This document shows, in pieces, positions 1 to 27,352 of a stretch of DNA of 64,000 nucleotides (positions within the stretch are counted from its first letter, which is position 1; the number at the start of each line of letters is the position of its first letter). The DNA is from Schmidtea polychroa. Lineage: Eukaryota. The notes below the pieces were generated by a model. The model was not told where the DNA came from. It made no database searches and was given only the letters and a program-made list of their open reading frames with translations. Location of the stretch: assembly GCA_044892525.1 (NCBI GenBank), contig CM097885.1, forward strand, positions 26,848,001 to 26,912,000. The letters are read 5' to 3'. The position numbers and the translations under genes were made by a program.

Positions 1-2
1 AA

Positions 3-1084: not shown

Positions 1085-1127
1085 TAAATGATTATATTTA
1101 ATAATATACACTTTAAGTTTTGAAGTT

Positions 1128-1604
1128 ATGAGAGTAAAAGAATTCAAATCTGAAAAACTTCATTTAGAAGATTTATTAAAACATAAAAAAATTAAAAGTA
1201 GATGGAATAGAGCCGATACTTGTTTAAAGATTGCTGGTTCTTCTTTGGGATTTGCAACAACAATATTAACAATTATATTATCTGCAACTTTACCAGTTTT
1301 AACACTTGTACCAATAATTCTTGGGAGTATTTCAGCTGGAGATTTATTCTTGACTGAAGTTGTTTCTGTATCATGCACTGCAAAAAAGAAAAGTTTATAT
1401 CGTGAAGTATGTTCAACAATAGATATTGGAATTGCAAAATTATTTTTATTTCAATTAAAAGCCTTGGAAGATGATGAAATTTTAAAATTCAATAAAATAA
1501 TTGAAGAGATAAAAGATGAAATTATCAAATTAAAAAATGCAAATCAAATATCCCGAGGATATTCAAAAAAAGATAATCGAGAGAAATGGTTAAAAAATAA
1601 TTAA
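1128..1604 (+). CDS. Polinton-associated 158-aa protein with a central hydrophobic hairpin
   Basis: Intact ORF; hydrophobic stretch IAGSSLGFATTILTIILSATLPVLTLVPIILGSI; abuts the pPolB 3' end. Confidence 0.5.
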   Translation: MRVKEFKSEKLHLEDLLKHKKIKSRWNRADTCLKIAGSSLGFATTILTIILSATLPVLTLVPIILGSISAGDLFLTEVVSVSCTAKKKSLYREVCSTIDIGIAKLFLFQLKALEDDEILKFNKIIEEIKDEIIKLKNANQISRGYSKKDNREKWLKNN

Positions 1605-1626
1605 AACTTTTATATTTTATATATAT

Positions 1627-4600
1627 CTAATAATATCTAATTTTAATTTTACTCATTTCAACATCTGTTATATTAACCCTATATTTCCTATTATATTTTT
1701 TTAATTTTTTAATGTGTGGAATTATATCACTTCCAAATGGAATTGTATGAATTCCATCAGATAAAACATACCTTTTATCATCATAATTATCCAGCGAGGT
1801 TTTTAAAGATTCCTGTAGAAAGATGTCATGTTTAATAGATTTAATTTGATGAACTCTTACTATTTGTTTCTCAGAATTTGGTTTTAAGACATCAACATAA
1901 TCTTGATGTTTAATTGGTTTGGTTACACATTTTTGAATTCCTTTATTTTTATTTTCTTGTATCATTGGAACATTTGAGTTACTTGCCTCCATTAAAAGAG
2001 AATATTGTTTTGGACGAATAAATATTCCTTCAGATATTGGATTCTTTGGTTTCTCATCTTTAAAAGTAAATAATGCCACACTTGAATTTATTAATTTATT
2101 CAAGTTTTCATTTTCAGATATTTCCTCGTATATATCACGAGTATAAATTCTTAAAAACATACTATCTGTATCCATTGCATGCATTGATATTCTATCTTGG
2201 AAATGTGGTTGTAATACATCATAATATGTTTCATACATTTGCAGTTTCGATAATTCTAAAATACTATATCCAATAAACATTGGCTTGTTGTATATTTTTT
2301 CATAATTTCCTATTTCAATTGCAACTAATTCTCTTGAAAATATTTCTGCATTTTTAAATGTTGGTTTTGATGTCATTCTATTATATTTTGCAAAATCTTT
2401 TTGACTGTTTGTTAATAATTGAATCTTTGTATACTTGTCAATATTTTCCATTGTTTTTCCAAATACAGAATTATTTAATAATTTATACATGGTGTCTTCA
2501 AATGCATCACCTGCTTGTTTAGATACATTTCTAATTTTGATATTATTCTCGATATATTTTTTCATGAATGATTTTTGTACAAATTTTATAATATTATGAA
2601 CCCGTCTAATCTCCATTCCATGTCTAACATAGAATTGTAACATTCTATAATGTATGAGATAAATCTTTTTATTTGTTTGATCACATATTAATTTTGTAGT
2701 GGTATGTTCATTTCTCTCGTTCTGCCATGGGGATAATTCATCTTCACTTATTTTTCTTTTTATTGGGGCAAATGGAAAATATTTTGTTTTGAATTTTATA
2801 CTGTTTGGATATTTTAAATCAACTTCTAGAAAATATCCAATATCTGAATCCCTGGGAGTATTTAATATATTGTTTATTAATTCATTGGTTACTTCTTGCC
2901 ATTCAAATGAGGAAATTGGTAAATATTGTGTCATAATTCCCGAATACAAAGCAGTTGCATCAATATATAATATTTCACATGGATTATTTATACATTCCAT
3001 TATCATTTCATATTCTTGTTCTGTTTTTATTTCAACATATGGTTCATCTGTATCTTTGAACAAAGTTCTATAAAGATATATATAATTCAATGCAATTATA
3101 TGTCTTTCACCCATTATGGAACTAATTCCACCACGAATATTATTTTTTATCATGTTGAACATGTTGACATCTGATAATAATTCTATGGATTTACTTGTTT
3201 CATTTGTTTCCACTTCAGAAATCATACCATATAATAATATATCCCAAGCTAATGATGGTAGGGTTATATTATAAGAAACCCAATTATAAGGTTTCAATGG
3301 AAATGTTTTTATAAACTTTTCAAAAACAATCTGCGAGAATATAAACATCTAGACTTAGATATACATCTGTATAATCACCCATGGTTTGACAATTAAATAA
3401 TTCCCACATTTTTCTAGCCCGGGCATCTTCTTGTTTAGTTGTAGTTGTTTGGTTTAATATTGAATAAAAATTTTCATCTGGGGGTAATTCTGTTTCTTGA
3501 TATCTATCAAATGAATCCATTTTTTGATAAACATGTTTTATATTGTTGTGTTGGAATATCATGTTTTATCAAAACATTTTCTGTTGTATATTTAAAATCA
3601 TTTATTAAAGGGGTTGGAACAACTCCTTCAATAAAATCAACTTGTTCAACTTGTTCAAATTTCAATGTTTTTGCTATTGAGTCTAAACTTGTTCCAAAGA
3701 AATTTAATGAATCTATGAATTTTAAACATCCATATTCTACACATTTATATTTTTCTTTTGTTAAACCAATAACTTTAAAACTATTCTTTGCGTTAATTGC
3801 TAAATGTTTTATGAACAAATGTATATCATATCCAAATAGATTATGAAATATAACTGGTATAAATTTTGGTTTTTTACAATTTAAATTACAATTATTATGA
3901 ACCGCCCCTCGGTAATTATTTATTTCTTTTAAATGATCATGATCTATAACTTTTGGATTATTAACATTTTCACCCAAATCTTGATTCTCTCCCAAATCTT
4001 GTTTACACATCCAACAAATTGTAGAATTTTCATATTCTATAAATTGTTCTGGTGAAATATTTATTGGAAAATCAGTTTTTAATTTTTTATACAAGAATGA
4101 TTCCAAGGAATTTATACTTGCAACAAAATGATCTAGAGTATCCCATGGAGAAGTTCCTCGATATGCTATTTCATATGATTCAATTATTTCTGGATAATTA
4201 CTTTTGATGAATAAATTATATGCTGATGGAAGTTGTTTAGTTAATTTTACCGTAAAAGATTTTTTGTTTAGTTTAAGAAAGTTTTTCATTTTTTCTATTT
4301 GGTTTGGTTGAGAATTTGTTTGTGTTCTTGTTCCTAAATCATATTCATGCCAAGATTCTAATTATTTATTTTTTTTTATAATATTTATGTATTTTTGTTC
4401 TAAATTTTGTGGTATATTAATTGCTTCAAAATCTCCATAAATTGTAACAAGAGATTCTAATAAATTTGAATAATTTTTAAATTTCATTTCAAGATTCTCT
4501 GGCATTTTAATTAATGTCGGTTCATTATATCGACATAATGTTTCATGTTTTATTCTGACAGCATCAGAAGTTGAATAATAAGTACATATTTCACAAGTAT

Positions 4601-5783
4601 ATCCTTGTACTCGATGAGAGGATGATGATCAAGATCTCATAAAGCTTTGAAATTTTTTATCCAAACATAATGAGAAATTAAATCATTTGTATCAGATGAA
4701 ATCTTTTCTAATATTAATAAACTTATTGTATCAAAAGTTACGGTTGAAGAATTCACATCTTGATATGAAATATAAATTGGTATAACCTCGGCACCATCTA
4801 ATTCATAAATATTAGTTCTAAGTTGATTCAATCTTTCAAATTTTGACATGTGTTCTATTTTCATTGGGTGCTCAAAACCATCCCAGAATAAAATTTGATA
4901 TTCATATTGTCGATATTTAGATACTCGATAAGAATGTTGTTCTCGAGGATGTAAAGCTGATAGTATTGCCCATAGGAAACATTTATTATCTTTATTTTGA
5001 ACATTTATTATGTGTTTAGAAATAAAAGGTGTTGGAATATATGGTTTGGGAACTGCGGGATTTCCTTTCCAATTTTTTATTTGAATATTTTCAAAGGAAT
5101 GGAAAATTAAATTTGATTCTCCTAATTCCTGTTCAGATTGTTCTTGGGATTCTTGCAACTCTCGAATAACTTCTTTGATTGCTTTTTTAAATCCTTTCAT
5201 TGAATATAAATATTTATAATCAATTTGAATTCTAAATTTTAAAAAATTTTCGGATTTGTCTGTGGATTGGTCAATCTGTCGACAATATTTTGCGTTTATT
5301 CCTATTTTATATTTTATAATATTAAACCTTGCACCTTTGAAACTTTTTATAGCTTTTTCCATTGATTCTTTTGTTTCATCTGAATTTTTTTTTATTATAT
5401 GAAGAAATTGTGGATGCTCCAATTTCTTCACTACCAAATTCATCAACATGATTAAATTCATCCCAACCTTCATCTTCATCTTCACATTCTTTAGAGTGTT
5501 CCTTTAAATCAAATTTACTTTTGAAGACTTCATGATACTTGAGACATGAAAATGATTCTCTTATTTTTTTTATTCCAATACAATTTCTAAAATGTTTTTC
5601 AAACCCTAAAAATAAATATCTTTCTTTACACTTGGTACAAATTTTAGAGTTGTTATCATCTAATAAACTTGATTTCCTTAAATGATCTTTTGATTTTTTA
5701 TGTGAAATTAATCCTGTTTTTGATTTGAAACTCCTATTACATGAATCACAAAATAATCTTGGGAAGTTTTCTGAAGTAGCCAT
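1627..5783 (-). pseudogene. Protein-primed family B DNA polymerase (pPolB, endonuclease VII-domain type), broken by several frameshifts
   Basis: Successive ORF pieces carry an N-terminal C2H2 finger, NKDNKCFLWAIL, IYGDFEAI, CWMC..DHDH..GAVHNNCN, FHNLFGYD, YIDATALY, KLLNNSVFGK and MDTDS motifs. Confidence 0.9.
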
Positions 5784-6099
5784 TTTTATTTTTAGAAAAT
5801 TTTTTTAGTGGTTTATTTTTATAATATAAAATTTGACAACTTCATATTTTACATTGTTGGGTATTAGTAAATTTACTAATTCCCATAATTATTGAAATTT
5901 TCAAGAGGTAATATATATATTATATAATCATATTTATTATATAATCATTGCATGTGTATCATATATATGAACAAAAACCTTATATTTTTTTTATTCTTGG
6001 GTACCCAACATTATTAAAATTATTTTTATTTTAAAATTATTAAATCATTGTATACATGTATATTTAAATTATTATTATTTTAATATACATAGATTTGTA

Positions 6100-11008: not shown

Positions 11009-11723
11009 TTAATCAACTATAACTTCTCCATTAATACATCTTGGTATATAAATCCACATATTTCTTAAATATTCAGCACAATCGTTTGCAGTCACAAGAG
11101 TACTTCCATTAGCAATATCATCCATTAACTCTGTTTCATTCTGTGAATTGGCCCTTTTTGTTATCTCCTTCCACTTGCTAAACATATCCTCAGTAGGGTT
11201 GAGAAAAGCCGAGTACGGTGGTAAATACATTAGTTCTGTTGACTCATCAATGATAATGTTGACAACTTCTGGAGTTCTGTGGAACTTTACATTATCCATA
11301 ATAAAACATGGTCGAAAAATTTCCTTATCAATTAAAATCTGCTTAAGCTCATTAATTTATTCAATTAATAACTCCTTATTAATTGCGCGATTATGATACT
11401 TTAGAAAATTAAACCACGTTTATTCATTGCGCAAATTATCGATATATTACGCGATCGAATGTTCAGTACGTTTTGAGTAGCGGGGTGTCTACGCGTGAAC
11501 AGCCCAGTGTTATCCGCATTGAAACATTAAATCCCTCCTCATCAATAAATATGGGTTCTTCCTCAGAATATAAACTTAAATCGGAACTAAAATTAAGTGC
11601 GTAGTTGCTTCTTGCGGAAATTACATCAGTTGAATTTTGTCTTTCGGGAATTAAGTGAAGTCTTTTCAATGAATAGTGAAAGGAAGTTAATAAATTGTGA
11701 ACATAAGTATTGGAAACCAGCAC
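11009..11723 (-). pseudogene. IS630/Tc1-mariner (DDE_3-type) transposase remnant
   Basis: IFIDEEGFN, MDNVKFH and YLPPYSAFLNPTEDMFSKWK motifs in frameshifted pieces. Confidence 0.8.
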
Positions 11724-12274
11724 ACCATATTCATTAAATACCTCTCAAATCTTCAGATGATTGATCTGGACTGTATGATAAACGACTGGCATGACATCTT
11801 CAAACATTCATTGATAAAACAATGCAAAAGAAATAATTATCTTTCATCTTTTTCTTCCTTTTATATTTGTTAACAATAATATTGAAAAAAAGTCTAAATA
11901 TCCATTTTTCACGGAAAGGGTTAAATGTTTTAAGAAATTTACTTATTTTTATACATCTAGTTTAATTAATTTCAAATTACTAAAAACGTATTCTAAGTAG
12001 TGTACCCCATAGGTCTGGCGCTAAAACCTTCTCTCAAACTTCAAATGTTACTTGAAATTACAGATTGAAAATATAAGACTGAAAACAATCGTATTAAAAT
12101 TCATTATTTTATTTTTTGTTTACTAGTTCTAAATTATAAATATTATATTTTTAATATTCGGAAACTTATTAAGACTCAATTATCAGTTTCCACCAAATAT
12201 GAAGGAAAATATTATTTAATTTATGATAATATTGCCGTTACAACCATCATTTTTGGATATTTCTATTGTTTATA

Positions 12275-12325
12275 AGTAGGTAGTTATGTGCACTCTAGAT
12301 CCATGTGCACTCTAGATCCAGATAC

Positions 12326-12371
<46 letters not shown>

Positions 12372-13712
12372 AAACCCCCCCCTACTTTTTTTTTTTTTTT
12401 TTTTTTTTTTAATTTTTTAAAAGACCCCCCCCCCATATTTTTTTTTTTTAAATTTAAATTTTTGTTTTAATTATCGATTACGTAATAATTTTATTTTTTG
12501 TTTTAATCATCGATTACGTAATAATTTAAAATTTTTTTAAAACATCGATTACGTCATTGATTTTAATTTTTTATAAGAATTTTTTATGTCATTATACTTG
12601 AAATTTAATTCTCTGTTAAATGAGACTATGATGTAATCAAAAATCTGAAATTTCATTTTTAGTACACCATTTTTAAATTTACACATCTTTTTAAACAAAT
12701 TGAGATATTTTCACTCAAACAATATATAGATAGAATTTTAATCTCTATAAAATGACATCAATATTTACTTCAAATTCATAATCATAACACCTTAAACAAT
12801 GTATTTTTCAGCCAACTTTTACATACACACATATTTTCAACTTTTAAAAAATACAAATTATTCATCTATACTTAACTCATAGTAAATAATTATATTAAAA
12901 GACATATTAAAAGATGTATTAAAAACTAAACATTTATTAAAATCCTAGAGAAATTCGAGCACTATCTAATTTCCAAATCGGTGATATGACATCTTTCTCA
13001 TCCATTTTATATCCCTGTATTGAAATATTTACAAACCAGCTTTCACCATCTTTATATTCAATTTCTTCAAAGGCATCATGAAAACGAGAATTTCGATTGT
13101 TGATGATTATATTTCCATTGCAACTTAGATTCTTATTGATTTTCCCCAACACTTTATTTACTGCAACAACATCTTCTTTTGTTATATGAGCAATGAAACT
13201 TGAATATTGCGACTTGATCAATTTGACTGCATTTGAGAATTTATATGGAATTTCGTCTACCAAGAAATATATCTTATGGTTATGATACATTTGTACTGGT
13301 TTCACATCATTCTTGGCATGCTTCGTCTCAGTTATTTTCTTAATTGGGCTTGTTTCTTTCAATAAATTAGAAAATGTTTTCTCACCAAAAACGTTCTTCT
13401 TGGATTGCATTTTTTAAAAATAATGACTATGATGTCATTTTATCTCTCTTTTATACTTGTGTATAACCAATCAAATGAATGCATTTGTATTGCAAACAAC
13501 ATGCATGTGTCATTGACCTTCGTGTGTGACCTTTGTATGTGACCTTTACATTTGTGACCTTTGTATGTGAGTCATACATGGTTTGCATATGTATTGCAGA
13601 TGTATTGCAAATTAGTTAATTAAAACGTGTACTAATTAGTGTGATATTAAAAATATTATACTAATACATGTAACATAAAAATAGTGTACTATCACAAGTA
13701 ACAATATAAAAT
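12275..13712. repeat. Left terminal inverted repeat (~1.44 kb)
   Basis: Reverse complement of 25857-27305 apart from a few substitutions, homopolymer length differences and a ~19-bp indel. Confidence 0.95.
12937..13410 (-). CDS. TIR-encoded 157-aa protein, copy 1 (function unknown; possibly an OB-fold ssDNA-binding protein)
   Basis: Intact ORF; protein identical to 26179-26652; CCAAT and TATAAAAG upstream; AATAAA overlaps the stop. Confidence 0.8.
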   Translation of the reverse strand: MQSKKNVFGEKTFSNLLKETSPIKKITETKHAKNDVKPVQMYHNHKIYFLVDEIPYKFSNAVKLIKSQYSSFIAHITKEDVVAVNKVLGKINKNLSCNGNIIINNRNSRFHDAFEEIEYKDGESWFVNISIQGYKMDEKDVISPIWKLDSARISLGF

Positions 13713-13746
13713 TAGAAAACACTGTATTATAATAACTAAACATTTA

Positions 13747-14124
13747 TTAGTGATCTACAATTAATGAAAAGTGAGCTTTTCTCAACTCTTTCCTTAATAT
13801 CCATATATTATACTTCTTCTCTCTATCAATACATCCTTCGCATTTGTATGGGCATACTGATGGCTTGCTGCTGTCAACAGGGCCAAGATCGTCTTCTAAC
13901 GTCCTCAAGTGATCAAACAAAACCACATTCAAATCTATTCCGGTAGACATCCATATTCTGAATGGAATAATCTCTGGTGCCCAATAGATTAGATCCTTTA
14001 AAATATTCGGATATAATTCCCCCATTTTCCCCATCAGAATCTGTATCATTTTTTCTAAAACATTTAAAATTATAAATATAAAAAGCAATAATCAAAATAT
14101 ACCATTTACAGTTAAATTTGACAT
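13747..14124 (-). CDS. Polinton hypothetical protein, ~109 aa, two exons (14124-14103, 14054-13747)
   Basis: ATG at 14124; a 48-bp GT-AG intron (14102-14055) joins MSNLTVN-E-KMIQILMG.. in frame; CPYKCEGC motif; AATAAA at the stop. Confidence 0.65.
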
Positions 14125-14233
14125 TCTCAACTAGTACTTAATAAATGATTAAAGTGTTATTGTATATATATATATATACTTATTTCGATACACACCATCA
14201 ACCAATTGGATTCATGCATGGACGATTGCAACT

Positions 14234-14698
14234 TTAGTTTAGGAAAAAATTTAAAAATTCCATGTCATCAATTACTGATTTAATATCTTTAATAATTTTA
14301 TAAACAAGTAAATGATAATCCAATGTCTTTATACCGAGTATAACTACTTTACCACTATTGAATATGTTAACACACATTGGATTGTATTTTATATATCTTA
14401 ATGCCGGAAATATTTCTGGTTCGTAAATACATTTCATATACTTTGATAAATCATTTAAAATAACATTTGATTCAATATCAGCAGTAACTGTAATCGATTG
14501 AATTTGTAAATCCTTGATTTCATATTTTAAATCTTCAACTTTGATCGATTTTTTACATCCCATTATTCGACATTTACCTGACTTGAAAAATATTATTGAA
14601 TGTTTACCGCTTCTGTCAACAATTTGTTGTGGTTTACCTTTTGGAAATTCCATATGAGATACATCAAATCTACCTTTATAATTTATATTACTAATCAT
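14234..14698 (-). CDS. TATA-binding protein (TBP)-like protein encoded by the Polinton
   Basis: Two TBP repeats: IIFFKSGKCRIMGCK and YEPEIFPALRY..PMCVNIFNSGKVVILGIK (canonical TBP: LIFSSGKMVCTGAK and YEPELFPGLIY..PRIVLLIFVSGKVVLTGAK); also ISNI and IQSI strand starts. Confidence 0.88.
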   Translation of the reverse strand: MISNINYKGRFDVSHMEFPKGKPQQIVDRSGKHSIIFFKSGKCRIMGCKKSIKVEDLKYEIKDLQIQSITVTADIESNVILNDLSKYMKCIYEPEIFPALRYIKYNPMCVNIFNSGKVVILGIKTLDYHLLVYKIIKDIKSVIDDMEFLNFFLN

Positions 14699-14746
14699 AT
14701 TTTTTCAAATAATTTTTCATCAAGTAAACTGATGAATTAAAACAAA

Positions 14747-14753
14747 TATAAAC
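14747..14753 (+). promoter_or_regulatory. TATAAAC box, candidate late promoter (also at 15393, 15598, 18432, 20140; variants at 15963 and 19730)
   Basis: The same heptamer recurs 37-42 nt upstream of start codons in the capsid/packaging cluster. Confidence 0.6.
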
Positions 14754-14783
14754 AATATTAATATATATAACTAATTTTTTAAA

Positions 14784-15407
14784 ATGGAATTAAGAAATGA
14801 TGCTGTTTATCAAATTGTAGGTCCAAGCGGTAGTGGTAAAACTTTATTTGTTTGTAAATTATTACAATCAAAAATGTTCAAGTCAAAATTCAATAAAATA
14901 TATTGGCATAGGGGTGCTGATGACGAACATGGTTTGACGCAAGAACAATTCTGTAAATTAAAAATGACAATAATAAAAGGATTTGATAAAAACTGGTCAT
15001 CTAGATTACAACAGGGTGATGTAATTATTATTGATGATTTATATCAAGAAGCTAACAAAGAAAAAGATTTTAATAATTTATTTACAAAAATATCTCGACA
15101 TCATGGTGTAACAGTTATTTTTATAACACAAAATCTGTTTCATCAGGGTGGGAGTCATCGAACTCGGAACTTGAATGTTCAATATCTTGTTATTTTCAAA
15201 AATCCGAGGGATGCAACTGTTATTGATTTCATTGCAAGACAAGCATATCCAAACAATCGTAACTTTCTAATTGAATCATTTCAAGATGCAACCAAAATAC
15301 CCCATGGATATTTATTCTTTGATTTTACTCAGCAATGCATGGATGATGTACGTATTAGGACAGATATTTTTAATAAAGATGGTGTAACAGTTTATAAACA
15401 AAATTAA
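14784..15407 (+). CDS. FtsK/HerA-superfamily (A32-like) DNA packaging ATPase
   Basis: Walker A GPSGSGKT, Walker B IIIDD, SRHHGVTVIFITQN, RTRNLNVQY. Confidence 0.93.
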   Translation: MELRNDAVYQIVGPSGSGKTLFVCKLLQSKMFKSKFNKIYWHRGADDEHGLTQEQFCKLKMTIIKGFDKNWSSRLQQGDVIIIDDLYQEANKEKDFNNLFTKISRHHGVTVIFITQNLFHQGGSHRTRNLNVQYLVIFKNPRDATVIDFIARQAYPNNRNFLIESFQDATKIPHGYLFFDFTQQCMDDVRIRTDIFNKDGVTVYKQN

Positions 15408-15431
15408 ATTATGAATCTATTATAATAAAAA

Positions 15432-15602
15432 ATAGGGTTCAAGAAAGTTTTAATTAAACATGATAATCAATTAGTCAAAGTGAAGAAGAAACGTGTAAAG
15501 AAACATGTAAAGAAATCTATAAAAAAGATAGTAAAGAAATCTGTAAAGAAAACGTTGAAGAAAAGATCAATCAAAACACCTAAAAAATGGATTAAATTAT
15601 AA
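15432..15602 (+). CDS. 56-codon lysine-rich peptide, candidate DNA-condensing core protein; start codon is ATA (mutated ATG or splice-in)
   Basis: IGFKKVLIKHDNQLVKVKKKRVKKHVKKSIKKIVKKSVKKTLKKRSIKTPKKWIKL; fills the gap after the ATPase; TATAAAC 39 nt upstream. Confidence 0.55.
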   Translation: MGFKKVLIKHDNQLVKVKKKRVKKHVKKSIKKIVKKSVKKTLKKRSIKTPKKWIKL

Positions 15603-15635
15603 ACAAAGTTAAACGATAAAAAATAAATTTCAATA

Positions 15636-15967
15636 ATGAAATTACAACGTAGTATACCATATTTTAATGCATTGATAAAAGCACCACTCATGAAAAGAAC
15701 AAGTATTTTACAATCATTCCCACAATTTGTTGTGGACGATTTGCTTGAAATTATTGTTAATGTTGTGCGTGGCAATGTTGACATTAGTAAAGCGAAAAAA
15801 CTTGTATTGCAAAACCATAAAAAATCACTTTTATCGTTAGTAAATACAAAAAATAAACGTATAATGCGAAAAATTATATACAAACAGAAAGGGGGTTTAT
15901 ATCAGCTTTGATACCAATCGCATTATCTTTATTAGGTGGATCTGGTTTATTAGGTGAGCCTTCATAA
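15636..15967 (+). CDS. Small basic virion-type protein; hydrophobic C-terminal tail lies in the -1 frame after QKGG
   Basis: ORF 15636-15911 ends KQKGGLYQL; the -1 frame from 15896 reads FISALIPIALSLLGGSGLLGEPS* (stop 15967). Confidence 0.65.
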
Positions 15968-16001
15968 ACGTTGAATTATTTTAATATCATCATCATAAAC
16001 A

Positions 16002-16235
16002 ATGGGTCAATTACCTATGGGACATTTACCAAACCTTATTCTAAATTTTAAATCATCGTGTTGTAATGGAGAAGATATGGACAAACCCAAAAGATCCAGC
16101 CGGTTTCGGTGGAGTCGAAAAGTTAAAGAAAAAAGTACCCAAATCAAAAAAGGAGACTCAAAAATGGTTGTCGAGTCAACTGGCATACAATTTAAACAAG
16201 CCAATGTTGAAACGGTTTCCCACAAGAGCATATAA
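16002..16235 (+). CDS. 77-aa ORF overlapping the integrase start, with N-terminal MG and SSCC (possible lipidation)
   Basis: ATG in AACAATGG context; CATAAAC 39 nt upstream; overlaps the integrase in another frame. Confidence 0.4.
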   Translation: MGQLPMGHLPNLILNFKSSCCNGEDMDKPKRSSRFRWSRKVKEKSTQIKKGDSKMVVESTGIQFKQANVETVSHKSI

Positions 16236-17085
16236 AACATATGGTATTAATGATTTATGGCAAATGGACTTAATGGAAATGATTCCATTTTCTAAAATTA
16301 ATAAGGGTTACAAATATATTTTGACATGTATTGATGTCTTTAGTAGATTTGCTCGAGCTATACCATTGAAAACCAAATCTGCTAGTGAAATGGCTGTTGC
16401 AATAAAAACAATGTTTAAAAATGGTAAACCAGATAATTTACAAACTGATTTGGGTAAAGAATTTTATAATAGCAAAGTTAAAGAAAATCTAAAGGGAATA
16501 AATCATTACTCTGTTTTTTCACAATTCAAAGCTGCTCATGTGGAAAGGTTTAATAGAACATTAAGAGATCGATTGAAAAAATATTTTGTACATCAAGGTA
16601 ACAAAACTTGGATAAATGTTTTACCGAAAATAATTCATAGTTACAATCATTCCGAACATGGAGGTCTAAAGGGTATGAGACCGATTGATGTAACATCTAA
16701 AAATAGTATGAAAATATTATTATCACAACAAGATGTAACAAAAATTAAGAAACCTAAATATAAAGTTGGTGATCATGTTAGAATAAGTAAAATATCGGCT
16801 TCACCATTCATTAAAAATTTTGACAACAACTGGAGTGACGAAGTCTTTCAAATATCGAAGATTAATACGAAACAGAGTCCCGTTATGTATGTTATTAAAG
16901 ATATTGATAATAATGAAATCCAGGGTAAATTTTACGAACAGGAACTGCAAGTTATTCCGACACCATCTGTCTTTAGAATTGAAAAAATTCTTAAATCAAA
17001 ATATAAAGGTAAGGATAAACAATATTACGTCAAATGGCATGGATATCAAAACCCAACTTGGATATCAGCATCTCAAATTGAATGA
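16066..17085 (+). CDS. Retroviral-type (rve) DDE integrase with C-terminal chromodomain
   Basis: WQMDL, LQTDLGKEF and VERFNRTL catalytic motifs; FRIEKIL..YYVKWHGY..TWI chromodomain. Confidence 0.96.
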   Translation: MEKIWTNPKDPAGFGGVEKLKKKVPKSKKETQKWLSSQLAYNLNKPMLKRFPTRAYKTYGINDLWQMDLMEMIPFSKINKGYKYILTCIDVFSRFARAIPLKTKSASEMAVAIKTMFKNGKPDNLQTDLGKEFYNSKVKENLKGINHYSVFSQFKAAHVERFNRTLRDRLKKYFVHQGNKTWINVLPKIIHSYNHSEHGGLKGMRPIDVTSKNSMKILLSQQDVTKIKKPKYKVGDHVRISKISASPFIKNFDNNWSDEVFQISKINTKQSPVMYVIKDIDNNEIQGKFYEQELQVIPTPSVFRIEKILKSKYKGKDKQYYVKWHGYQNPTWISASQIE

Positions 17086-18098
17086 ATAGAAACAATTTTT
17101 TCACTATTTTACCAAGCAATAGCTGTCCATTAATTCATCCGAATAATGAGGCTAGTAAATTTATCGTTGAGTTACAAAATCCCATTTACCTGCATGACAT
17201 GTGGGAAGTTGCTTTGCTTGATTACACATTTGTGTACAATACATTTCCATTTTACAGTAATTCTAAGATTGAATATAAAGAAATTGCATCGAAATCAGTT
17301 AGCAGCTTTTATGTTATTGAACCCGAAGATGATGAAACGACAATAAAAGAATTAAATAATGATTGTTACATGTATATTACCAAGGGAGTTTTAAATATTT
17401 GTTGCGATTACCATCCATTCGAGATAACATTTGAAGATGCAAGCGTAAAAAGATTAGGAGTTCCTGAACCAACAATTATAAGTCACACTGATACATTTCA
17501 AATTGTAATTCCGCCGTATGTTGATGGCATTATGAATAATGTAATTAGAATGAAGTTAACGTACAATTGTTTACAAGATTCAGTTTTCACATTTACTGAT
17601 GATTTATACATAAAGAAGCTTGAAGATTTAACCAACTATTTAACAAGTAATTGCCCCCATATTTTCAAGTCTGTTGAACTGAATGAAAATGTCTTCAAAT
17701 TCAGTCTCGGTGAAAACATTAAAGAAGTTATATTTGATAAAAACTTGGTCAACACATTTGGATTACAAAAACAATTATATAATGACAAACAATTTGGTGG
17801 AGTTCGTAAAGGAAAAATATTTAATCATCATCAACAAATGTTCATCTATAGCGATATTATTGATCCGATAAATGTTGGTGATTCACTGGTACCTCTTCTG
17901 AAAGCGGTGTGGATTAAGAAATATGAGCAAGATGAAGTTGTGCAAATACAAATAGAAAATCCTATGTATTTACCAGTTGGGAGAACATGTATAAACAATA
18001 TAGAAATTAATATACGCGATGATAGCGGAAATTTAATCCGATTTGCAAACGATTCAAAAACACACGTAACTTTACATTTTAGAAAACAAGATGTCTAA
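17082..18098 (+). CDS. Minor capsid protein (penton, Polinton PX-like)
   Basis: N-terminal FFTILPSNS..NEASKF..L.NPIYL..WEVAL and C-terminal IYSDII..VGD..PLL..PMYLPV..IEINIRD..G..TLHFR. Confidence 0.85.
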   Translation: MNRNNFFTILPSNSCPLIHPNNEASKFIVELQNPIYLHDMWEVALLDYTFVYNTFPFYSNSKIEYKEIASKSVSSFYVIEPEDDETTIKELNNDCYMYITKGVLNICCDYHPFEITFEDASVKRLGVPEPTIISHTDTFQIVIPPYVDGIMNNVIRMKLTYNCLQDSVFTFTDDLYIKKLEDLTNYLTSNCPHIFKSVELNENVFKFSLGENIKEVIFDKNLVNTFGLQKQLYNDKQFGGVRKGKIFNHHQQMFIYSDIIDPINVGDSLVPLLKAVWIKKYEQDEVVQIQIENPMYLPVGRTCINNIEINIRDDSGNLIRFANDSKTHVTLHFRKQDV

Positions 18099-18477
18099 TC
18101 CTGATATAGTTTCTCTTTATGCCAATAGTCAAACTGGTGGCGAATTACCATATTTTGTTGGCAAACAATATGGATCCGGATGGTTAAAAACTATTGGTCG
18201 GTTTGCTCTTCCTATTCTTAAACGTATAGGAAATTTTGGTATGAAAACAGCTAAAGATGTAATAATGAATAATGCAAAAATATTACCATCTTTAAAATCC
18301 AATGCCATATCTGAATTCAAAGAGGCATTACCAGATGTGATTTCTTCATTACCAAATGTAATGGGATCAAATGAAGCATCAGAATCTGAAGAGTCTGAAC
18401 CACAGCCTAAGCGAAGAAAACATCGAAGGTATATAAACAAACGAATGACAGGACGTGGAACTATATTCGAAAAATGA
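18091..18477 (+). CDS. Small virion protein with amphipathic helix (adenovirus pVI-like membrane-lytic candidate)
   Basis: QTGG and QYGSG motifs followed by amphipathic WLKTIGRFALPILKRIG; basic tail PKRRKHRR; lies between the penton and major capsid genes. Confidence 0.7.
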   Translation: MSNPDIVSLYANSQTGGELPYFVGKQYGSGWLKTIGRFALPILKRIGNFGMKTAKDVIMNNAKILPSLKSNAISEFKEALPDVISSLPNVMGSNEASESEESEPQPKRRKHRRYINKRMTGRGTIFEK

Positions 18478-19697
18478 TTTGTGGAAAAACTGAATTATGT
18501 ATTTTTGATCGACCGACTCCTCAGGCGGTTATAGAATATGCGACATTTGAAGACGTATTCCCCTTTAATTCAATTGTTGATAATAAAAGCGATATTGAAT
18601 TCAAAATAACTGGTTCTCATACTGAATATCTCGATTTGAATGATACATTACTCTACATTAAATTAAAGGTTACAAATAATAATGGAAAGGAATTACCGGT
18701 TACTTCAGATGCAAAAGCTAACAATTACTTGTTCCATACACTTTTTAGTGATGTTATTGTTGGACTCAATAGTCAAAAGATTGAAGGTGGAAACGGAAGA
18801 TATACACAAAAAGCTTTAATTGAAACTATTTTAAATTATAATGGAGATAGTAAAAACATTTGTCTGGCTCCTATGGGTTACATTCCATCTGATAAGGAAA
18901 GAACAGCATTAATTGCCGGTTCTAAATTAGTTTCCCTATGTTCGTCATTGCAAATAGATTTTATGGATCAACCAAAATATTTACTTCCAGGAGTTAATGT
19001 TAATGTAACACTGAAAAGAAACCCATCATCATTCAGTATACATTCGCTAACAGATGAACCAAAGATAAAGGTATTGGAAGCAAAATTAATGATTCGCAGA
19101 GTTCGAGTTGAACCATCAGTTTTAGCAGGGCATCAAATAGGGTTAAATTCTAAAAATGCTATATATCCAATTAGAAGTAAAGAAACTGTCGACTTTACAA
19201 TCAGTAAAGGTTCATCGTCATTTTACAAGGAACAATTATTTATTGACAAAAGATTACCAAATTTCGTTTTAGTGGCATTTCAAACTGAATCTCAATTTAA
19301 GGGAACATATAAGGAATCCAGCTCAATCTTTAAACATTTGGATATTACATCAATCACTTTAGCCAAAAATAATGACTATCGAGAAACATATACACAAAAC
19401 TTTGACACAAATGATTATACTACAACGTATATGCAAAGTATTGTGAGAAATCTGGGGTATTTGGATAAAAACATGAACTGTGGGATTACACTTGAAGATT
19501 TTAAAGATAAATATCCATTCTTTACATTTGTTTTGTCTCCAGATTTTGATTTGAATCAAAGTCAATTACCACAACAAGGAAATTTAAAATTGAGTGTAAA
19601 GTTTAATAAATCACTCGAGGAATCGGTTTATGTAATAGTATACGGAGTTTTCGAAAGAGAATTACAAATTACTGCAAGTCGATCAGTATTGGTTTGA
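18474..19697 (+). CDS. Major capsid protein (double jelly-roll, Polinton PY-like)
   Basis: KTELCIFDRPTPQAVIE, YLDLNDTLLYIKLK, NNYLFHTLFSDV, QPKYLLPGV; size and position fit a Polinton MCP. Confidence 0.88.
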   Translation: MICGKTELCIFDRPTPQAVIEYATFEDVFPFNSIVDNKSDIEFKITGSHTEYLDLNDTLLYIKLKVTNNNGKELPVTSDAKANNYLFHTLFSDVIVGLNSQKIEGGNGRYTQKALIETILNYNGDSKNICLAPMGYIPSDKERTALIAGSKLVSLCSSLQIDFMDQPKYLLPGVNVNVTLKRNPSSFSIHSLTDEPKIKVLEAKLMIRRVRVEPSVLAGHQIGLNSKNAIYPIRSKETVDFTISKGSSSFYKEQLFIDKRLPNFVLVAFQTESQFKGTYKESSSIFKHLDITSITLAKNNDYRETYTQNFDTNDYTTTYMQSIVRNLGYLDKNMNCGITLEDFKDKYPFFTFVLSPDFDLNQSQLPQQGNLKLSVKFNKSLEESVYVIVYGVFERELQITASRSVLV

Positions 19698-19762
19698 AAG
19701 TATTTCAAACTGTATTGGTTTAAACGTAGTATAAATGAATTAAACAATGGAAACAATTTATT

Positions 19763-20144
19763 ATGGAGTAAGTTTTTAATTAATAATTAATTTTATTTGA
19801 TTAGTTCTATTCAGGTTAATCGAATTGGAAAAATGTTGTTGGGGAATCAGTTTACTGGAGTATTCCCATTAGATAAAATCCCCTATCTGAACGCAAACCA
19901 AGCTATAGTCGTCAATACTCAATCATCAAATCTTGAAGGAGAACATTGGATTGCAATATATGTGAAACCTGATAAAATACATGTTTTTGATCCGATGGGA
20001 TATTATTATCCAGATATAATGATAACAAAACTACAAACAGTTGGTAAACCCCTTCTGTATAATAAAATTCGTTATCAAAATCCAATGACTCAAACATGTG
20101 GTCAACATTGCCTTGCATGGCTAAATTCAATGTTATATGTATAA
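19763..20144 (+). CDS. Adenain-like cysteine maturation protease; start probably supplied by a short spliced 5' exon
   Basis: NTQ..GEHW, FDPMG and Q..TQTCGQHC give a His-Asp-Cys triad; donor GTAAGT at 19768 with in-frame acceptors at 19804 (ATG 19763, MDSIQVNR..) or 19814 (ATG 19747). Confidence 0.88.
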
Positions 20145-20176
20145 ACGATGTAGTTTAATAAATCTTATTAATAAAA

Positions 20177-20596
20177 ATGTCTTGTTATTTTATTGACTTT
20201 GTAGGTTATAATGATTATGCTGGTGGAATAATTATTAAAGAATTATGTATTATGAATGTAAATAATATTTTACGCCCAAAGTATTGGTTATTTAATGATT
20301 TACCATTTTGGGCTGGACGTGAAAATTCAGATCGATTGGAATGGTATGAAGGTGAAGATTCGTTTTGTCCAACATGTATATTGAGAGATGTAGAAGATAC
20401 AAGTGGAATTTTCTATGTCACTGATCAAGATAAACTTACAGTTTTGAAAAATTATTTCCCAAATTTAAGATTAATAAAATATTCAATCCAATTATCAGAA
20501 TATTTTCCTGATAATATCTTGTGTCCTTACCGTGATCATTCTAATTGTGCTTACAAAAATTGTTTAATTGCTGTGTTAGATTATTTAAAAAATTAA
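20177..20596 (+). CDS. DEDD/DnaQ-like small protein with C-terminal Cys/His cluster, probably nuclease-inactive
   Basis: FIDFVGY..IIKEL, LEWYEG and CPYRDH.NCA pattern; the DxE glutamate position is V. Confidence 0.5.
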   Translation: MSCYFIDFVGYNDYAGGIIIKELCIMNVNNILRPKYWLFNDLPFWAGRENSDRLEWYEGEDSFCPTCILRDVEDTSGIFYVTDQDKLTVLKNYFPNLRLIKYSIQLSEYFPDNILCPYRDHSNCAYKNCLIAVLDYLKN

Positions 20597-20916
20597 TAAA
20601 GTTTTTGATTAAAAATTATATTATTATTAATTTTGTTATTATTACTCATATGCATTAAGATTGCAGTTTAAATGCATGATTAATCATGTTCTCTTAGTTT
20701 GTGTTAAATTTTTATTTTGTAATGTGTGTAAGTTTTGCTTCCTAATGTGTGAAAAGTATTTCACATTGTGTGTAAATTATATTTCATAGTGCGTGTGCAT
20801 GTAATACTCTCAATTTCTATTGGGTGAATACATATTACACAATTTATGATATATAAAGCAATGTTTAAAAATATACCATCACTTTTTTATATACCTAAAA
20901 TTTTAAACTCAACAAA

Positions 20917-21652
20917 ATGTCAAGAAATAATCAAGGAAGCCAAAGCGGAAACAGTGTCAAGAATGGTAAGATTTATTTATTTATTTATTTGTCATTATTA
21001 TTGATATAATTTATAGGTCTTAATCGTAATTTCAACAAAAGATCTAACAATAACAGTGAAAACATGCCAAATGGTATTTCGTTATTATTATTAAATTTAT
21101 AATTATTTATTCTTTTTAGATTTTATTATAAACAACATGAATGGATGCATTATAAATGGACGAAATATGAACGAGTCAAGTACAAATAACAATAATAATG
21201 GTAACAATTTGATTGCGCGCAGTACTGCATATGGAAAAAATGATTGCAAAATATCAAAAAGAAAAGTTACATGTAAGATTTTCATTTTTATTTAAAGATT
21301 TTTAATGAATTTTTATAAGGTTTTATTAAAAGATTTATTAATGTTTTTATTTTAATAATAATTAATACTTTAAATACAATAATTATAATATAGTACTTTG
21401 AATAATAATAATAATAATGAAATATTATGTAACAAGTTAAATTTATTTTTATCAATAATTTATTTTGATTGAAAATATATTTAACCTATTATATAATAGG
21501 TTAAATATATTTTGTATTGATTATGTTTAAACTATTACGTAATAGGGTAAATATATTTTGCATTAAGTATGTTTAAACTATTATGTAATAGGTTAAATAT
21601 ATTTAAGTAAAATTACCTTTTTGATAAAAATATATTTATATTATTTATTGAA

Positions 21653-21719
<67 letters not shown>

Positions 21720-21778
21720 GAATAAGAATAAGAATAATAAGAATAATAAGAATAATAAGAATAATAATAATAATATTA

Positions 21779-21835
<57 letters not shown>

Positions 21836-22272
21836 TCTTTCAGGTTCAAAATATCAAAATTATTGTAATAGTTCATTACATGATGATTGTGATTTCATAA
21901 TGGAAAAATATTACAAACATAGCCATAATCATACCATCTTTTTTATTTGCCCTGTTTGTATGAACCCCGAGACTGTAACATACATGGAGTTTTATCATCA
22001 ACATAGGGATCATTTAACTCAGTATAATTTAAAGAAAAAAGACCTTATTAATTTATTAAAAAATAATATTTCCAATACCTATAATCCCGCTATAAATCAT
22101 AATAATGATACTACAAGTACTAATAATAATAATAATAAGCCTAATGTAAATAATAAAAGAAAAATTAATTTACCTAATCTAAAACCCTCTAAATTTGTTA
22201 AAAAAGATCTTATCGTTATTTCAGACTCTGATGATGAGGTCATGCCTTTGATAGTTAACTCTTATTCACTTT

Positions 22273-22341
<69 letters not shown>

Positions 22342-25300
22342 TTACATCAACTTCTACAGAAGTCATTATTAATCAACAAGGTGGTTCACTTGAACCTGAA
22401 ACCATATTCGATTTAAATAAAACACACGCAGAAGTTAAAATGGATGTTTCATCCTTAAATTTAAAAACAGTTTCGATCCCTACTCAGTTAATAAATGAAT
22501 TAAATAAAGTTTCATCCGAGATGGGTTCAATAAAAATTCAATTTTGTTTGAAAGTGGAATTTGTAAAAGATGACGAATTTCAATCATTCGTTATTTCAAA
22601 TTCTGCTAGACCCATGAGTGATACCTTCTTAGAAGATGGTATTGATTTATTAAATGAAAAAAAATTTAAAGTTAACGAAAAGGGAAGCAACTGGGTTATA
22701 CATAAAATTGAATATATTAGTTTTATAATAACAAAATATTCGCAAATATCCAGATTAACTGGCCGTGGATATATTCCTACACCAGAAACATTATTAAATA
22801 AAAAATGTACTGTTAATGTTAAAAATACAAATGATGAATGCTTCCTATATAGTATTTTATCTATTTTGAAATATAATAGTATTAGTACCAATAGATCTAA
22901 GCCATATAATTATAATACTTCGGAATTAAAATTCGATCCTGCAGATCTCCCTATGCGCCTTTGTAATATTTCTAAATTTGAATCCCAAAACCCTGGTTTA
23001 TCGATAAATGTTTTAACTTATAACGAAAATATATTAAATGATGTTAAGAATACTGAAGAAGTTATGAAACATCCTTATGTTGACATAATTTATCGATCTA
23101 AAGTTATTGGGGGGACAACAATTAATTTAATTTTGTTAGAAGATTTTGACACATATCATTACATAGGTGTTACTAATCTTGATAGACTTTTGAATTGTAA
23201 CGATTCTAGTGTAACTGCTGTTAGGATTTGTAGTAAATGGTGTTCGAGATGCTTAAATGGTTTTCGAAATCCTAATTCTTTCATGAGACACAAGGGTTTG
23301 TGTGATAAAAATCAGTTAGGGACCACTCTCTTTACATTACCCGAAGATAAATATCTTAGTTTTACAAATTGGTCAAAGATTGTCACTCCTCCATTTGTTA
23401 TTTATGCCGACTTTGAGGCAATTTTACCTAAAGATAATAAATACTATCAAAAACATTTACCAATCTCAGCTGGTTTTGTTTTTATAAATAATTTTACAGG
23501 GGATAAATTTTATAAAAGTTTTATAGGATTGGATTGTGTTGAACAGTTTCTTCATGAACTTGAAGAAATTGGTAAGCAAATAGTGGCTCCATATTTTGAA
23601 ACACGATATAGGAAAATGATGTTTTTTAGTAGTATTGACAAAATAAACTTTTCTTCGGCTGTAAATTGTCATTTGTGTAAGAAAACTTTAGTAAATCCAG
23701 TAAGAGATCTTGACCATTTTTCGGGTAAATATTTAGGTGCAGCTTGCTCAACTTGTAATCTTTCTCGAAGAATTAGACCGGTTTTACCAGTTATTTTTCA
23801 TAATTTGAGAGGATATGATCTCCATCATATTCTCAAATTTGGCTTAGGTAAATTTAAATCATGGAATATTAATTGTATTCCTATAACTAGTGAAAAATTT
23901 TTAAGTTTATATGCAAGAATTGATGGATTAACTATAAAATTTATCGATTCTTGTCAATTTATTAACGATTCCTTAAAAAATGCTGTACAAACATTAACTA
24001 CATTTCCATTGACTAATTCTGAATTTAACGGAGTAATTGTTAATAGTAAAGGCATATTCCCATATGATTTTGCAACTAGTTTAGAAGTGCTTCAGGGAAC
24101 TCCCCAATTACCTCCAATTTGGGATGGTGTTACTGAAGTAGAATATGATATGGCTCAGCGCATTTGGGATGACCATAATTGTAATTCACTTTTGGATTAC
24201 ATGATGATATATTTAAAATTAGATGTCTTTTTACTTGCGGACTATTTCCAACAGTTTAGAGCAAAATCAATAGCTCATAACAGATTGGAACCCTTAAACT
24301 TTTTAGGCATTCCCGGTATGTCATGGAACTCTGCACTCATGACTTTAGATCATCCAATTGAGTTGATCCAAGACATGGAGATTTATAATTTCTTTGAGGG
24401 TGGGATTCGAGGGGGATTAACATTTGTTAATAAACATTACGTAAAATCAGATGAAAACACAGAGTTGCTCTATATAGATATTAACAACCTATATGGTTGG
24501 GCACTTAGCCAGAAACTACCAGATGGTAATTTTAAGTGGATTAACGATGAAATAAAATTAAATAAGATTTTGGATGATTGTATGAATGTTGACTTGGAAT
24601 TACTCACATTCGGTTATACTGTTGAAGTCGATTTGGAAATTCCAGAATCGATTCATGATAAGCTTGACGATTTCCCTGTTGCAGCTGAAAAGATCTGTGC
24701 ACCAGGATCCAAAGTGGAGAAGTTGATGCTTATCCACTATCCTAAAAAGAATTATGTAGTTCATTGGAGACTTCTCCAGCTTTATCTAAATATTGGGGTA
24801 AAGGTCACTAAAATTCATCGCGCTATACAATTTGAACAGTCATCAATATTTAAAAATTATATAGATACTAACACACAACTTAGGGCATCATCAACAAACA
24901 CATTAGATAAAAATTATTTTAAACTATTAAACAACAGTCTATACGGTAAGACTGTCGAAAACCTAAAGAAACGAATTAATTTAAGACTTTGCAATTCAGC
25001 CCAAAAGGTATTAACATATTGTTCTAAACCTAATTTCAAAAGGACTACTAAAATCGATGACGACTTAATATCTGTTCTATTAAGAAAAGATTTAATATGT
25101 TTAAATAGACCAAGTTATATTGGTCAATCAGTTTTGGATTTATCAAAACTTCGTATGTACCAACTTCAGTACATTGATTTAGAAAAATATCGTATAGAAT
25201 TTAATTGTAAAATTAATATAGTTGCTGGGGATACAGATTCGTTCTTTTTGGAAATTAAAAATTGCAAATTAAATTCTCTTTTACCCGCAATGATAAGGGA

Positions 25301-25820
25301 TAATTTATTAGATACCTCTAATTACGAGCCAACACATTCATTATATTCAAAAAACCTTGACTCTGTAATAGGGAAATTTAAAGATGAAAGCAAAGGTCTT
25401 GGATATGATGAATGGATATTTTTAAGACCAAAATGTTATAGCATGAAGGGTAGTAAGGGATGTATGAAAGCGAAGGGGGTCACAATGAAAGATACTGGAC
25501 TAACTCATCAGTCGTATCTGAATTGTTATAATAATAATGAGATTTATACAGTACCACAATTTAGGATAACGAGTAAAAACCATCAACTTTTCAGTATTAA
25601 AAATAATAAGAGGGCTTTAACTAATGCTGACGATAAGCGCAATTGGGTACTTAAAAATAAAAGTTATGCGTATGGTCATTATAGGGGGGGTGGTATGGTT
25701 ATGGCTGATGATTCTGATGAAGAAATGTTGCTGCCCATAGTTGATCCAGATGAAGATTTGCAATATCATCCTCATTTTCCAAATGATGATGGTTGTCAAT
25801 TAATAAATTTTATGATATAA
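20917..25820 (+). CDS. Protein-primed DNA polymerase B (pPolB); predicted exons 20917-20965, 21017-21073, 21120-21272, 21844-25820 (~1411 aa)
   Basis: 1306-aa ORF with IYADFEA, FHNLRGYD, YIDINNLYG, KLLNNSLYGK, GDTDS, RPKCY and an EndoVII-like CxxC..CxxC region; three phase-1 GT-AG introns add 105 in-frame codons. Confidence 0.95.
21472..21513. repeat. Perfect 42-bp palindrome in the predicted pPolB intron 3
   Basis: AAAATATATTTAACCTATTAT followed by its exact reverse complement. Confidence 0.9.
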
Positions 25821-26014
25821 AAAATTTGTTTTCATTCTATTTTTAATCGTTACAAAATTTTTATATTGTTACTTGTGATAGTACACTATTTTTATGTTGT
25901 TATAGTATTTTTATGTTACATGTATTAGTATAATATTTTTAATATCACACTAATTAGTACACGTTTTAATTAACTAATTTGCAATACATCTGCAATACAT
26001 ATGCAAACCATGTA

Positions 26015-26141
26015 TGACTCACATACAAAGGTCACAAATGTAAAGGTCACATACAAAGGTCACACACGAAGGTCAATGACACATGCATGTTGTTTGCAAT
26101 ACAAATGCATTCATTTGATTGGTTATACACAAGTATAAAAG
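26015..26141 (+). promoter_or_regulatory. Promoter/enhancer of the TIR gene: TGACTCA, four AGGTCA half-sites, ATTGG, TATAAAAG
   Basis: TGACTCA 26015; AGGTCA at 26029, 26044, 26057, 26070; ATTGG 26118; TATAAAAG 26134, 45 nt before the ATG; mirrored in the left TIR. Confidence 0.6.
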
Positions 26142-26178
26142 AGAGATAAAATGACATCATAGTCATTATTTTTAAAAA

Positions 26179-26652
26179 ATGCAATCCAAGAAGAACGTTT
26201 TTGGTGAGAAAACATTTTCTAATTTATTGAAAGAAACAAGCCCAATTAAGAAAATAACTGAGACGAAGCATGCCAAGAATGATGTGAAACCAGTACAAAT
26301 GTATCATAACCATAAGATATATTTCTTGGTAGACGAAATTCCATATAAATTCTCAAATGCAGTCAAATTGATCAAGTCGCAATATTCAAGTTTCATTGCT
26401 CATATAACAAAAGAAGATGTTGTTGCAGTAAATAAAGTGTTGGGGAAAATCAATAAGAATCTAAGTTGCAATGGAAATATAATCATCAACAATCGAAATT
26501 CTCGTTTTCATGATGCCTTTGAAGAAATTGAATATAAAGATGGTGAAAGCTGGTTTGTAAATATTTCAATACAGGGATATAAAATGGATGAGAAAGATGT
26601 CATATCACCGATTTGGAAATTAGATAGTGCTCGAATTTCTCTGGGATTTTAA
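26179..26652 (+). CDS. TIR-encoded 157-aa protein, copy 2
   Basis: Protein identical to copy 1; one synonymous CTA/CTG difference seen near the 3' end. Confidence 0.8.
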   Translation: MQSKKNVFGEKTFSNLLKETSPIKKITETKHAKNDVKPVQMYHNHKIYFLVDEIPYKFSNAVKLIKSQYSSFIAHITKEDVVAVNKVLGKINKNLSCNGNIIINNRNSRFHDAFEEIEYKDGESWFVNISIQGYKMDEKDVISPIWKLDSARISLGF

Positions 26653-27352
26653 TAAATGTTTAGTTTTTAATACATCTTTTAATATGTCTTTTAATATAAT
26701 TATTTACTATGAGTTAAGTATAGATGATTAATTTGTATTTTTTAAAAGTTGAAAATATGTGTGTATGTAAAAGTTGGCTGAAAAATACATTGTTTAAGGT
26801 GTTATGATTATGAATTTGAAGTAAATATTGATGTCATTTTATAGAGATTAAAATTCTATCTATATATTGTTTGAGTGAAAATATCTCAATTTGTTTAAAA
26901 AGATGTGTAAATTTAAAAATCGTGTACTAAAAATGAAATTTCAGAATTTTGATTACATCATAGTCTCATTTAACAGAGAATTAAATTTCAAGTATAATGA
27001 CATAAAAAATTCTTATAAAAAATTAAAATCAATGACGTAATCGATGTTTTAAAAAAATTTTAAATTATTACGTAATCGATGATTAAAACAAAAAATGAAA
27101 TTATTACGTAATCGATAATTAAAACAAAAATTTAAATTTAAAAAAAAAAATATGGGGGGGGGGTCTTTTAAAAAATTAAAAAAAAAAAAAAAAAAAAGTA
27201 GGGGGGGGGGGTTTAAAAATTTTAAAAAAAAAAAAAAAAAAAAAAGGGGGGGGGGTATCTGGATCTAGAGTGCACATGGATCTAGAGTGCACATAACTAC
27301 CTACTTTTATATTCTTAATTTTCTTATTTATTTTATGTCATTTTGTTTTTAG

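Follow-up and report, generated by a model that had tools for sequence, protein, structure and literature searches.

The window, that is, the whole stretch of 64,000 nt of Schmidtea polychroa DNA that was analyzed, harbors a complete Polinton/Maverick. Its features are the following, with vTBP denoting the TBP-fold protein and box denoting an ATAAAC-containing motif:

12275-27305, whole Polinton/Maverick, 15,031 bp, ends AGTAG...CTACT
12275-13711, left TIR, about 1.4 kb, 98.6% identity to the right TIR
12937-13410 (-), 157-aa ORF of the TIR, second copy at 26179-26652 (+), canonical TATAAAAG upstream
13747-14049 (-), 100-aa ORF downstream of vTBP, observed only in families of the host genome
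14234-14698 (-), vTBP gene, 154 aa, two repeats, YEPEIF stirrup present, H1/H2 segments short
14747-14754 (+), TATAAACA box, its ATAAAC beginning 36 nt upstream of the ATPase start codon
14784-15407 (+), packaging ATPase, A32-like (Pox_A32, E = 4.8e-6)
15393-15401 (+), TATAAACAA box in the 3' end of the ATPase gene (codons Y-K-Q)
15598-15605 (+), TATAAACA box upstream of the 91-aa ORF
15636-15911 (+), 91-aa ORF, conserved and present in relatives
15963-16001 (+), two CATAAAC boxes upstream of a 77-aa ORF (16002) and the integrase
16066-17085 (+), retroviral-like integrase with a C-terminal chromodomain (rve, E = 1.3e-10; Chromo, E = 8.4e-6)
17082-18098 (+), putative minor capsid protein (penton), from size and position
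18091-18477 (+), 128-aa ORF with a basic tail, containing the box upstream of the capsid gene
18432-18439 (+), that box, TATAAACA
18474-19697 (+), putative major capsid protein, from size and position
19833-20144 (+), adenain-type protease (Peptidase_C5, E = 1.1e-4, passing the cut-off)
20140-20147 (+), TATAAACG box upstream of the 139-aa ORF
20177-20596 (+), 139-aa ORF, conserved among relatives, no Pfam match
21900-25820 (+), family B DNA polymerase (PolB), 1306 aa
25859-27305, right TIR

The region 12275-27305 is a Polinton/Maverick by its TIRs, a 6-bp target-site duplication (TTTATA at 12269-12274 and 27306-27311), PolB, integrase, ATPase and protease. PolB was identified through a BLASTP match (E = 4e-51) to a protein that itself matches DNA_pol_B_2, a direct Pfam match being absent. 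The Pfam search also gave no match for the putative penton and major capsid proteins, which were assigned by position, size and conservation, their labels following the usual Polinton gene layout. The protease gene is possibly spliced, as a short exon-like stretch with GTAAG...TTCAG is located upstream of it at 19746-19833; this may account for the absent box at the listed protease start. A small intron-containing gene lies at 20849-21300, 5' of PolB, and is preceded by a canonical TATATAAAG. In run X1, presumed to be RNA, one contig skips 21073-21119, which nearly coincides with a GT..AG intron at 21074-21119 and is a weak hint of splicing. The 157-aa TIR ORF has a homologue close to vTBP in 21 of 80 metagenome loci and resembles ssDNA-binding proteins of phages weakly in its features (Atlas 0.89, low recognition; a lead only). 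Finally, positions 1-5800 of the window belong to another Polinton family, unrelated to the first, whose PolB is split across several ORFs.

The ORF at 14234-14698 (-) encodes a TBP-fold protein within the Polinton. All 154 codons are open, and 85 nt (14699-14783) separate it from the ATPase start at 14784. A sequence-only reading of this DNA had described an intact ORF with both TBP repeats, and the uninterrupted frame, the profile search and the predicted structure all bear this out. The match with Pfam TBP (PF00352) has an E-value of 2.7e-15 and a score of 56.4 bits (cut-off 22.9), the C-terminal repeat being the single stretch that passes. Sequence matches in the PDB are TBP chains or TBP fusions in 35 of 36 cases (best E = 2.3e-15). 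An AlphaFold model, built from a 74-sequence alignment, reaches a mean pLDDT of 96.1, and the strands of both repeats follow the TBP order. When the model is superposed on TBP, 143-145 residues align (Z 12-12.5, rmsd 2.4-3.1 A), which indicates that both repeats are present, and the next unrelated fold reaches Z 6.1. Among viral structures (BFVD, to E = 1.6e-8), giant-virus TBPs and unnamed entries lead the matches with 9-22% identity. The residues highlighted in the sequence-only reading were recovered as well: the C-terminal repeat retains both Phe and the YEPE motif (F97, F113, YEPEIF), the N-terminal repeat retains F38, and Pro (P23) occupies the yeast F99 position, as in 73/74 family members. 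The claim that H1 and H2 of the N-terminal repeat are mostly lost agrees with the model, in which H1 lacks a helix and H2 is a 3-residue turn; the two segments measure 18 and 19 residues in vTBP compared to 29 and 32 in cellular TBP.

The DNA-facing surface was compared in the same number of family sequences (74, chosen by similarity to the query), using yeast numbering partly taken from Table 1 of PMC12529657. Ten DNA-facing positions are changed relative to cellular TBP, yet they are nearly invariant within the family. These are V71>N (73/74), F99>P (73), A101>Q (60), V122>R (73), T124>M (74), N159>S (73), V161>T (69), I194>R (73), V203>C (74) and L205>N (74). Three Phe are retained (F116 in 73, F190 and F207 in all 74), together with K120 and K211. 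With three of four Phe, vTBP falls outside the canonical TATA-binding TBP face (four Phe; N69/V71/N159/V161). Rows more distant than the 74 still have P, F, R, M and N at positions F99, F116, V122, T124 and L205, while in the vTBP of locus L143, R44 and M46 are replaced by His and Trp, and boxes are present there nonetheless. At the sequence level, the acidic stirrup glutamates are kept in 71/74 (E93) and 73/74 (E95) proteins, and a stirrup conserved in this way would fit the recruitment of a factor from the TFIIB family. Members of that family share this stirrup as their contact, and one host TFIIB-family frame looks BRF1-like. Separately, assembly G000 has clusters (C3:38.2-39.1 Mb and C1:23.8-24.2 Mb) of at least 13 open frames, each about 304 codons long, that match the TFIIB repeat weakly; they could be cyclin-like.

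Escape from host regulators had been inferred for the protein in the sequence-only reading; as a core function based on loss of H1/H2, it is not supported by the comparison with relatives L093 and L094. These keep near-normal H1/H2 lengths and share the same remodelled face and the same upstream box, so the helix loss is secondary. As judged from the alignment and a 56-row tree, it is confined to one subclade, the short-form vTBPs (25 rows, support 100/99), and the family-wide feature is the altered DNA-binding surface combined with the promoter box.

The host genome contains at least 150 vTBP matches; among those listed, 48 have at least 92% identity and contain no stops, and other families lie at about 58-66%. 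All 30 close copies examined have Polinton neighbors. The ATPase adjoins vTBP in 29 of them, and at L014 a capsid gene takes its place. A protein search led to 88 relatives, and a Polinton core gene lies beside vTBP at 45/80 metagenome loci, many of the remaining ones being shorter than 3 kb and L109-L111 matching over a short piece only. TBP genes hence recur in sibling Polintons, in keeping with the initial idea of an element-borne TBP. The head-to-head arrangement with the ATPase at a distance of 85 nt holds for the window locus, but not as a family or functional trait: of 28 metagenome loci bearing both genes, 23 are co-oriented, 4 divergent and 1 convergent, and vTBP can either precede the ATPase or follow the protease or 139-aa ORF. 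One family member, P0165, has an apparently duplicated C-terminal repeat.

Purifying selection on vTBP is supported by a dN/dS of 0.15-0.32 between families (10 pairwise comparisons, partly saturated with dS of 1.0-2.4 in nine of them), which is not near 1, the neutral value raised beforehand; the corresponding ranges are 0.04-0.11 for the ATPase and 0.08-0.22 for the capsid. In addition, 29 close copies differ by 9 synonymous changes over 87 sites versus 8 non-synonymous over 375. In the unrooted 56-row tree, whose rows include no named NCLDV sequences, 45 remodelled-type proteins form a group separate from the TBPs of the host and those with a canonical face (support 100/100), supporting that vTBP is not a recent copy of host TBPs. 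Strong divergence from cellular TBP and stops in some genomic copies might evoke a host gene that was captured recently and is now decaying as a passenger; both the substitution patterns and the tree refute this explanation, which we regard as hardly credible.

Other TBPs were met in the course of these comparisons. A near-canonical TBP (Pfam, E = 1.3e-36) is encoded at 11565-12122 (-) of L145, another Polinton found in a bacterial MAG, where it is probably a binning contaminant. It groups apart from the vTBP family, which suggests that Polintons acquired TBP genes more than once. Several divergent TBP paralogues are located in the host genome (L113, L114, L115, L117, L118), two of them in single frames of more than 200 codons. 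Among viral contigs, scanning with the TBP alignment yielded a single weak locus (L031, E = 7e-4), near which our queries found no Polinton neighbors, and ATPase scans with a single protein and with an alignment gave zero loci; a scan of genome contigs gave three. As the viral-contig scans were nearly empty, no close TBP-less sister clade was obtained.

Many structural genes are preceded by a positioned, one-strand (T/C)ATAAAC(A/G) box. It was counted in the 90 nt upstream of homologous genes in the window, L032-L108 and three loci of the host's own genome, leaving out near-identical copies, L031, L109-L111 and unplaceable starts; deduplication at 70% reduced the ATPase set from 31 to 24 and the vTBP set from 68 to 53. 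ATAAAC is located 31-49 nt upstream of the ATPase start in 24/24 deduplicated loci (shuffle mean 0.97, maximum 5; antisense 0). At a later locus, L143, the ATPase lacks the box (24/25 overall) and three other genes have it. At 25-60 nt upstream, ATAAAC was found for the 91-aa ORF (9/9), capsid (6/8), 139-aa ORF (9/12), integrase (5/13) and penton (5/9), and was rare or absent for the 128-aa ORF (1/7), the protease (0/6) and vTBP (2/53). Shuffle means across genes were 0.2-1.4 and antisense counts 0, except for vTBP (6/53). The box distinguishes ATPase from vTBP genes with a Fisher p of 6e-18; the four-gene "late" set was picked after the motif had been seen. For the vTBP gene of the window, ATAAAC was not found upstream on its own strand. 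Canonical TATAWADR occurs in 23/53 vTBP genes, 10 of which also have an initiator-like TCAYT, versus 1/53 boxed-gene regions; in the other 30/53, including that of the window, canonical TATA was not found in the tested range. The box in the ATPase 3' end allows a further comparison, because its Y-K-Q is written TAT AAA CAA in 18/18 relatives (p = 2.7e-6 against a codon background of 0.71 for TAT and 0.69 for AAA). Conservation of the protein as its cause is rejected by this codon test, and the coding end is, on codon usage, constrained at the nucleotide level.

The identity of the factor reading the box can be approached through its flanks. At 48 sites, the 5' neighbor is T in 38, C in 9 and G in 1, and the 3' neighbor is A in 44 and G in 4. 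TATAAA is thus the box core in 38/48 sites, and ATAAACA, present in 44/53 regions, fits the forkhead pattern RYAAAYA; with several divergent TBP paralogues in the host as well, a protein of the host, be it TBP, one of its paralogues or a forkhead factor, might read the box while vTBP acts otherwise, for instance as a TFIIB decoy damping host transcription, for which a stirrup conserved while one intercalating Phe is lost would be suitable. Yet the other forkhead-type words are practically absent from the 53 regions (GTAAACA 0, GTAAATA 0, ATAAATA 2, reverse orientation 0), which disfavors the forkhead reading, and the box is fixed in strand and distance. Moreover, the invariant C is unexpected from the consensus of host TBP, and a decoy does not need an invariant DNA face. 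We therefore hold a host reader to be unlikely, while granting it some weight. The title of PDB entry 1qn3 names cellular TBP with a C(-25) TATA variant, which we take to be TATAAAC, so that TBP of the host is probably also able to bind this box.

The relationship between the box and the type of TBP was studied by counting boxed ORFs of at least 120 aa per stretch. There were 40/109 in 11 stretches with a remodelled TBP, against 1/53 in six TBP-negative stretches (best TBP E-value 0.14-2.1), which come mainly from a single distant family, represented by four 10-kb stretches that fall short of whole elements, with L136 and the partial L144 in addition, and 1/11 in L145, the one element with a near-canonical TBP face. 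The L145 protein retains F99, V122, T124, N159 and V161, and ordinary TATA-like words lie ahead of several of its genes. The controls are few, non-independent and partly incomplete, so co-inheritance without causation could explain the pairing of box and face. As a correlation at the sequence level, the variant TATA box appears to mark most, not all, structural genes. The TBP-negative relatives of the family at window 1-5800 (L133-L135, L142) present neither a TBP match nor an ATAAAC box, and in three of them 18/30 ORFs have TAAAATG-like start ends, presumably comparable to poxvirus-type late starts. L136 contains two facing PolB genes in a large inverted duplication of about 10 kb, where our queries found no capsid-like neighbors.

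We propose, on correlative evidence and with a probability of roughly 70%, that vTBP is a virus-specific late-promoter recognition factor that works like herpesvirus ORF24. Host machinery would transcribe the vTBP gene early from an ordinary TATA promoter, and vTBP would then bind the YATAAACR box. If the orientation of TBP-DNA structures applies, the N-terminal repeat, which has changed more than the other half, would be turned towards the 3' half of the box and thus towards its non-standard C. The conserved acidic stirrup would recruit host TFIIB and Pol II, and the packaging and capsid genes would be switched on with very short 5' leaders. In the short-form subclade, loss of H1/H2 may also delete host-cofactor binding sites. 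Such a pair of vTBP and box suggests that the element brings along its own switch from early to late genes, as some herpesviruses do. Several points run counter to this: host TBP is probably competent for TATAAAC as well, a start about 30 nt 3' of the box leaves leaders of few bases, the 128-aa ORF and the protease are largely unboxed, and L143 deviates at two face residues.

The short leaders would also fit a vTBP that binds the box to repress or time the promoters, or to reserve them for a different polymerase system, namely Pol III through a BRF-type factor. The use of the same stirrup across TFIIB-family proteins is compatible with this, as is the absence from the short-form subclade of H2, a docking site for activating cofactors. 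The boxed genes are long and AT-rich, and their T runs would presumably stop Pol III; a stirrup is a recruitment surface, and the herpesviral counterparts activate, according to PMC12529657. Repression or Pol III use is accordingly quite improbable in our judgment. A non-transcriptional role in replication, packaging or genome bending, the box being unrelated, might be read from the ATPase or SSB-like ORF adjoining vTBP in many loci; the variable position of vTBP, the kept stirrup and the co-occurrence of the box with the remodelled face make such a role very improbable.

Extending the late-promoter proposal, a widespread Polinton clade may conduct autonomous two-stage transcription in the nucleus with one minimal TBP of altered specificity and host TFIIB, which would be the third time that viruses have independently solved late transcription; to this broader statement we give about even odds. 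If true, elements with vTBP would be helper-independent viruses, and the TBP-negative family of the same genome, with its TAAAATG-type starts, may rely on another system. This bears on how capsid genes of integrated Polintons are switched on and on the autonomy of these elements as viruses. A dedicated factor with a defined box would be a testable system and would provide a sequence marker for late genes. vTBP would also be a natural minimal TBP of altered specificity, informative on TATA recognition, and could possibly be used with its box as an orthogonal promoter-factor pair.

Compared with known systems, vTBP shares with cellular TBP the two-repeat saddle (Z ~12), F116/F190/F207, both lysines and the YEPExFP stirrup. 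It differs in its overall sequence (about 25-29% identity), the F99>P exchange within ten face changes, H1/H2 segments about 11 and 13 residues shorter, and the absence of the N-terminal extension. NCLDV and mirusvirus TBPs are also virus-encoded TBP folds, with the 9-22% identity noted above. NCLDVs mostly bring their own RNA polymerase, whereas the 15-kb Polinton encodes none. Common to Polintons/Mavericks/adintoviruses and the element at 12275-27305 are PolB, integrase, ATPase, protease, putative capsids, TIRs and the 6-bp target-site duplication. TBP is listed for some MELD element in the Fig. 5 legend of Starrett 2021 (PMC8502044), its one mention in the main text; it is absent from the supplement file searched, and in these parts of the source a TBP family, residue analysis or promoter box does not appear. 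A description of the vTBP family and box was not found in the full-text literature, a scope that leaves subscription journals, Repbase, figures and bioRxiv supplements outside. Viral TBP mimics are already known; the remodelled Polinton family and its box appear new, a prior description elsewhere being possible. The closest counterparts in proposed function are the herpesvirus mimics KSHV ORF24, EBV BcRF1 and HCMV UL87, which, like vTBP, combine a polar DNA face with a variant TATA box ahead of structural genes. In ORF24, the residues at V122, T124, V161 and L205 are polar too (PMC12529657, Table 1). It is a protein of 752 aa with an N-terminal domain of its own that binds Pol II, and it lacks the acidic stirrup residues and was modelled as TFIIB-incompatible, according to PMC12529657. 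In contrast to these multidomain mimics, vTBP is a bare 154-aa core with the stirrup present, and its box is YATAAAC compared to the TATT late promoters that the same source describes for herpesviruses. Signs of the remaining herpesviral activators were not noticed in the Polinton. There is no sign of direct descent between vTBP and the herpesvirus proteins, the likeness being one of proposed function only.
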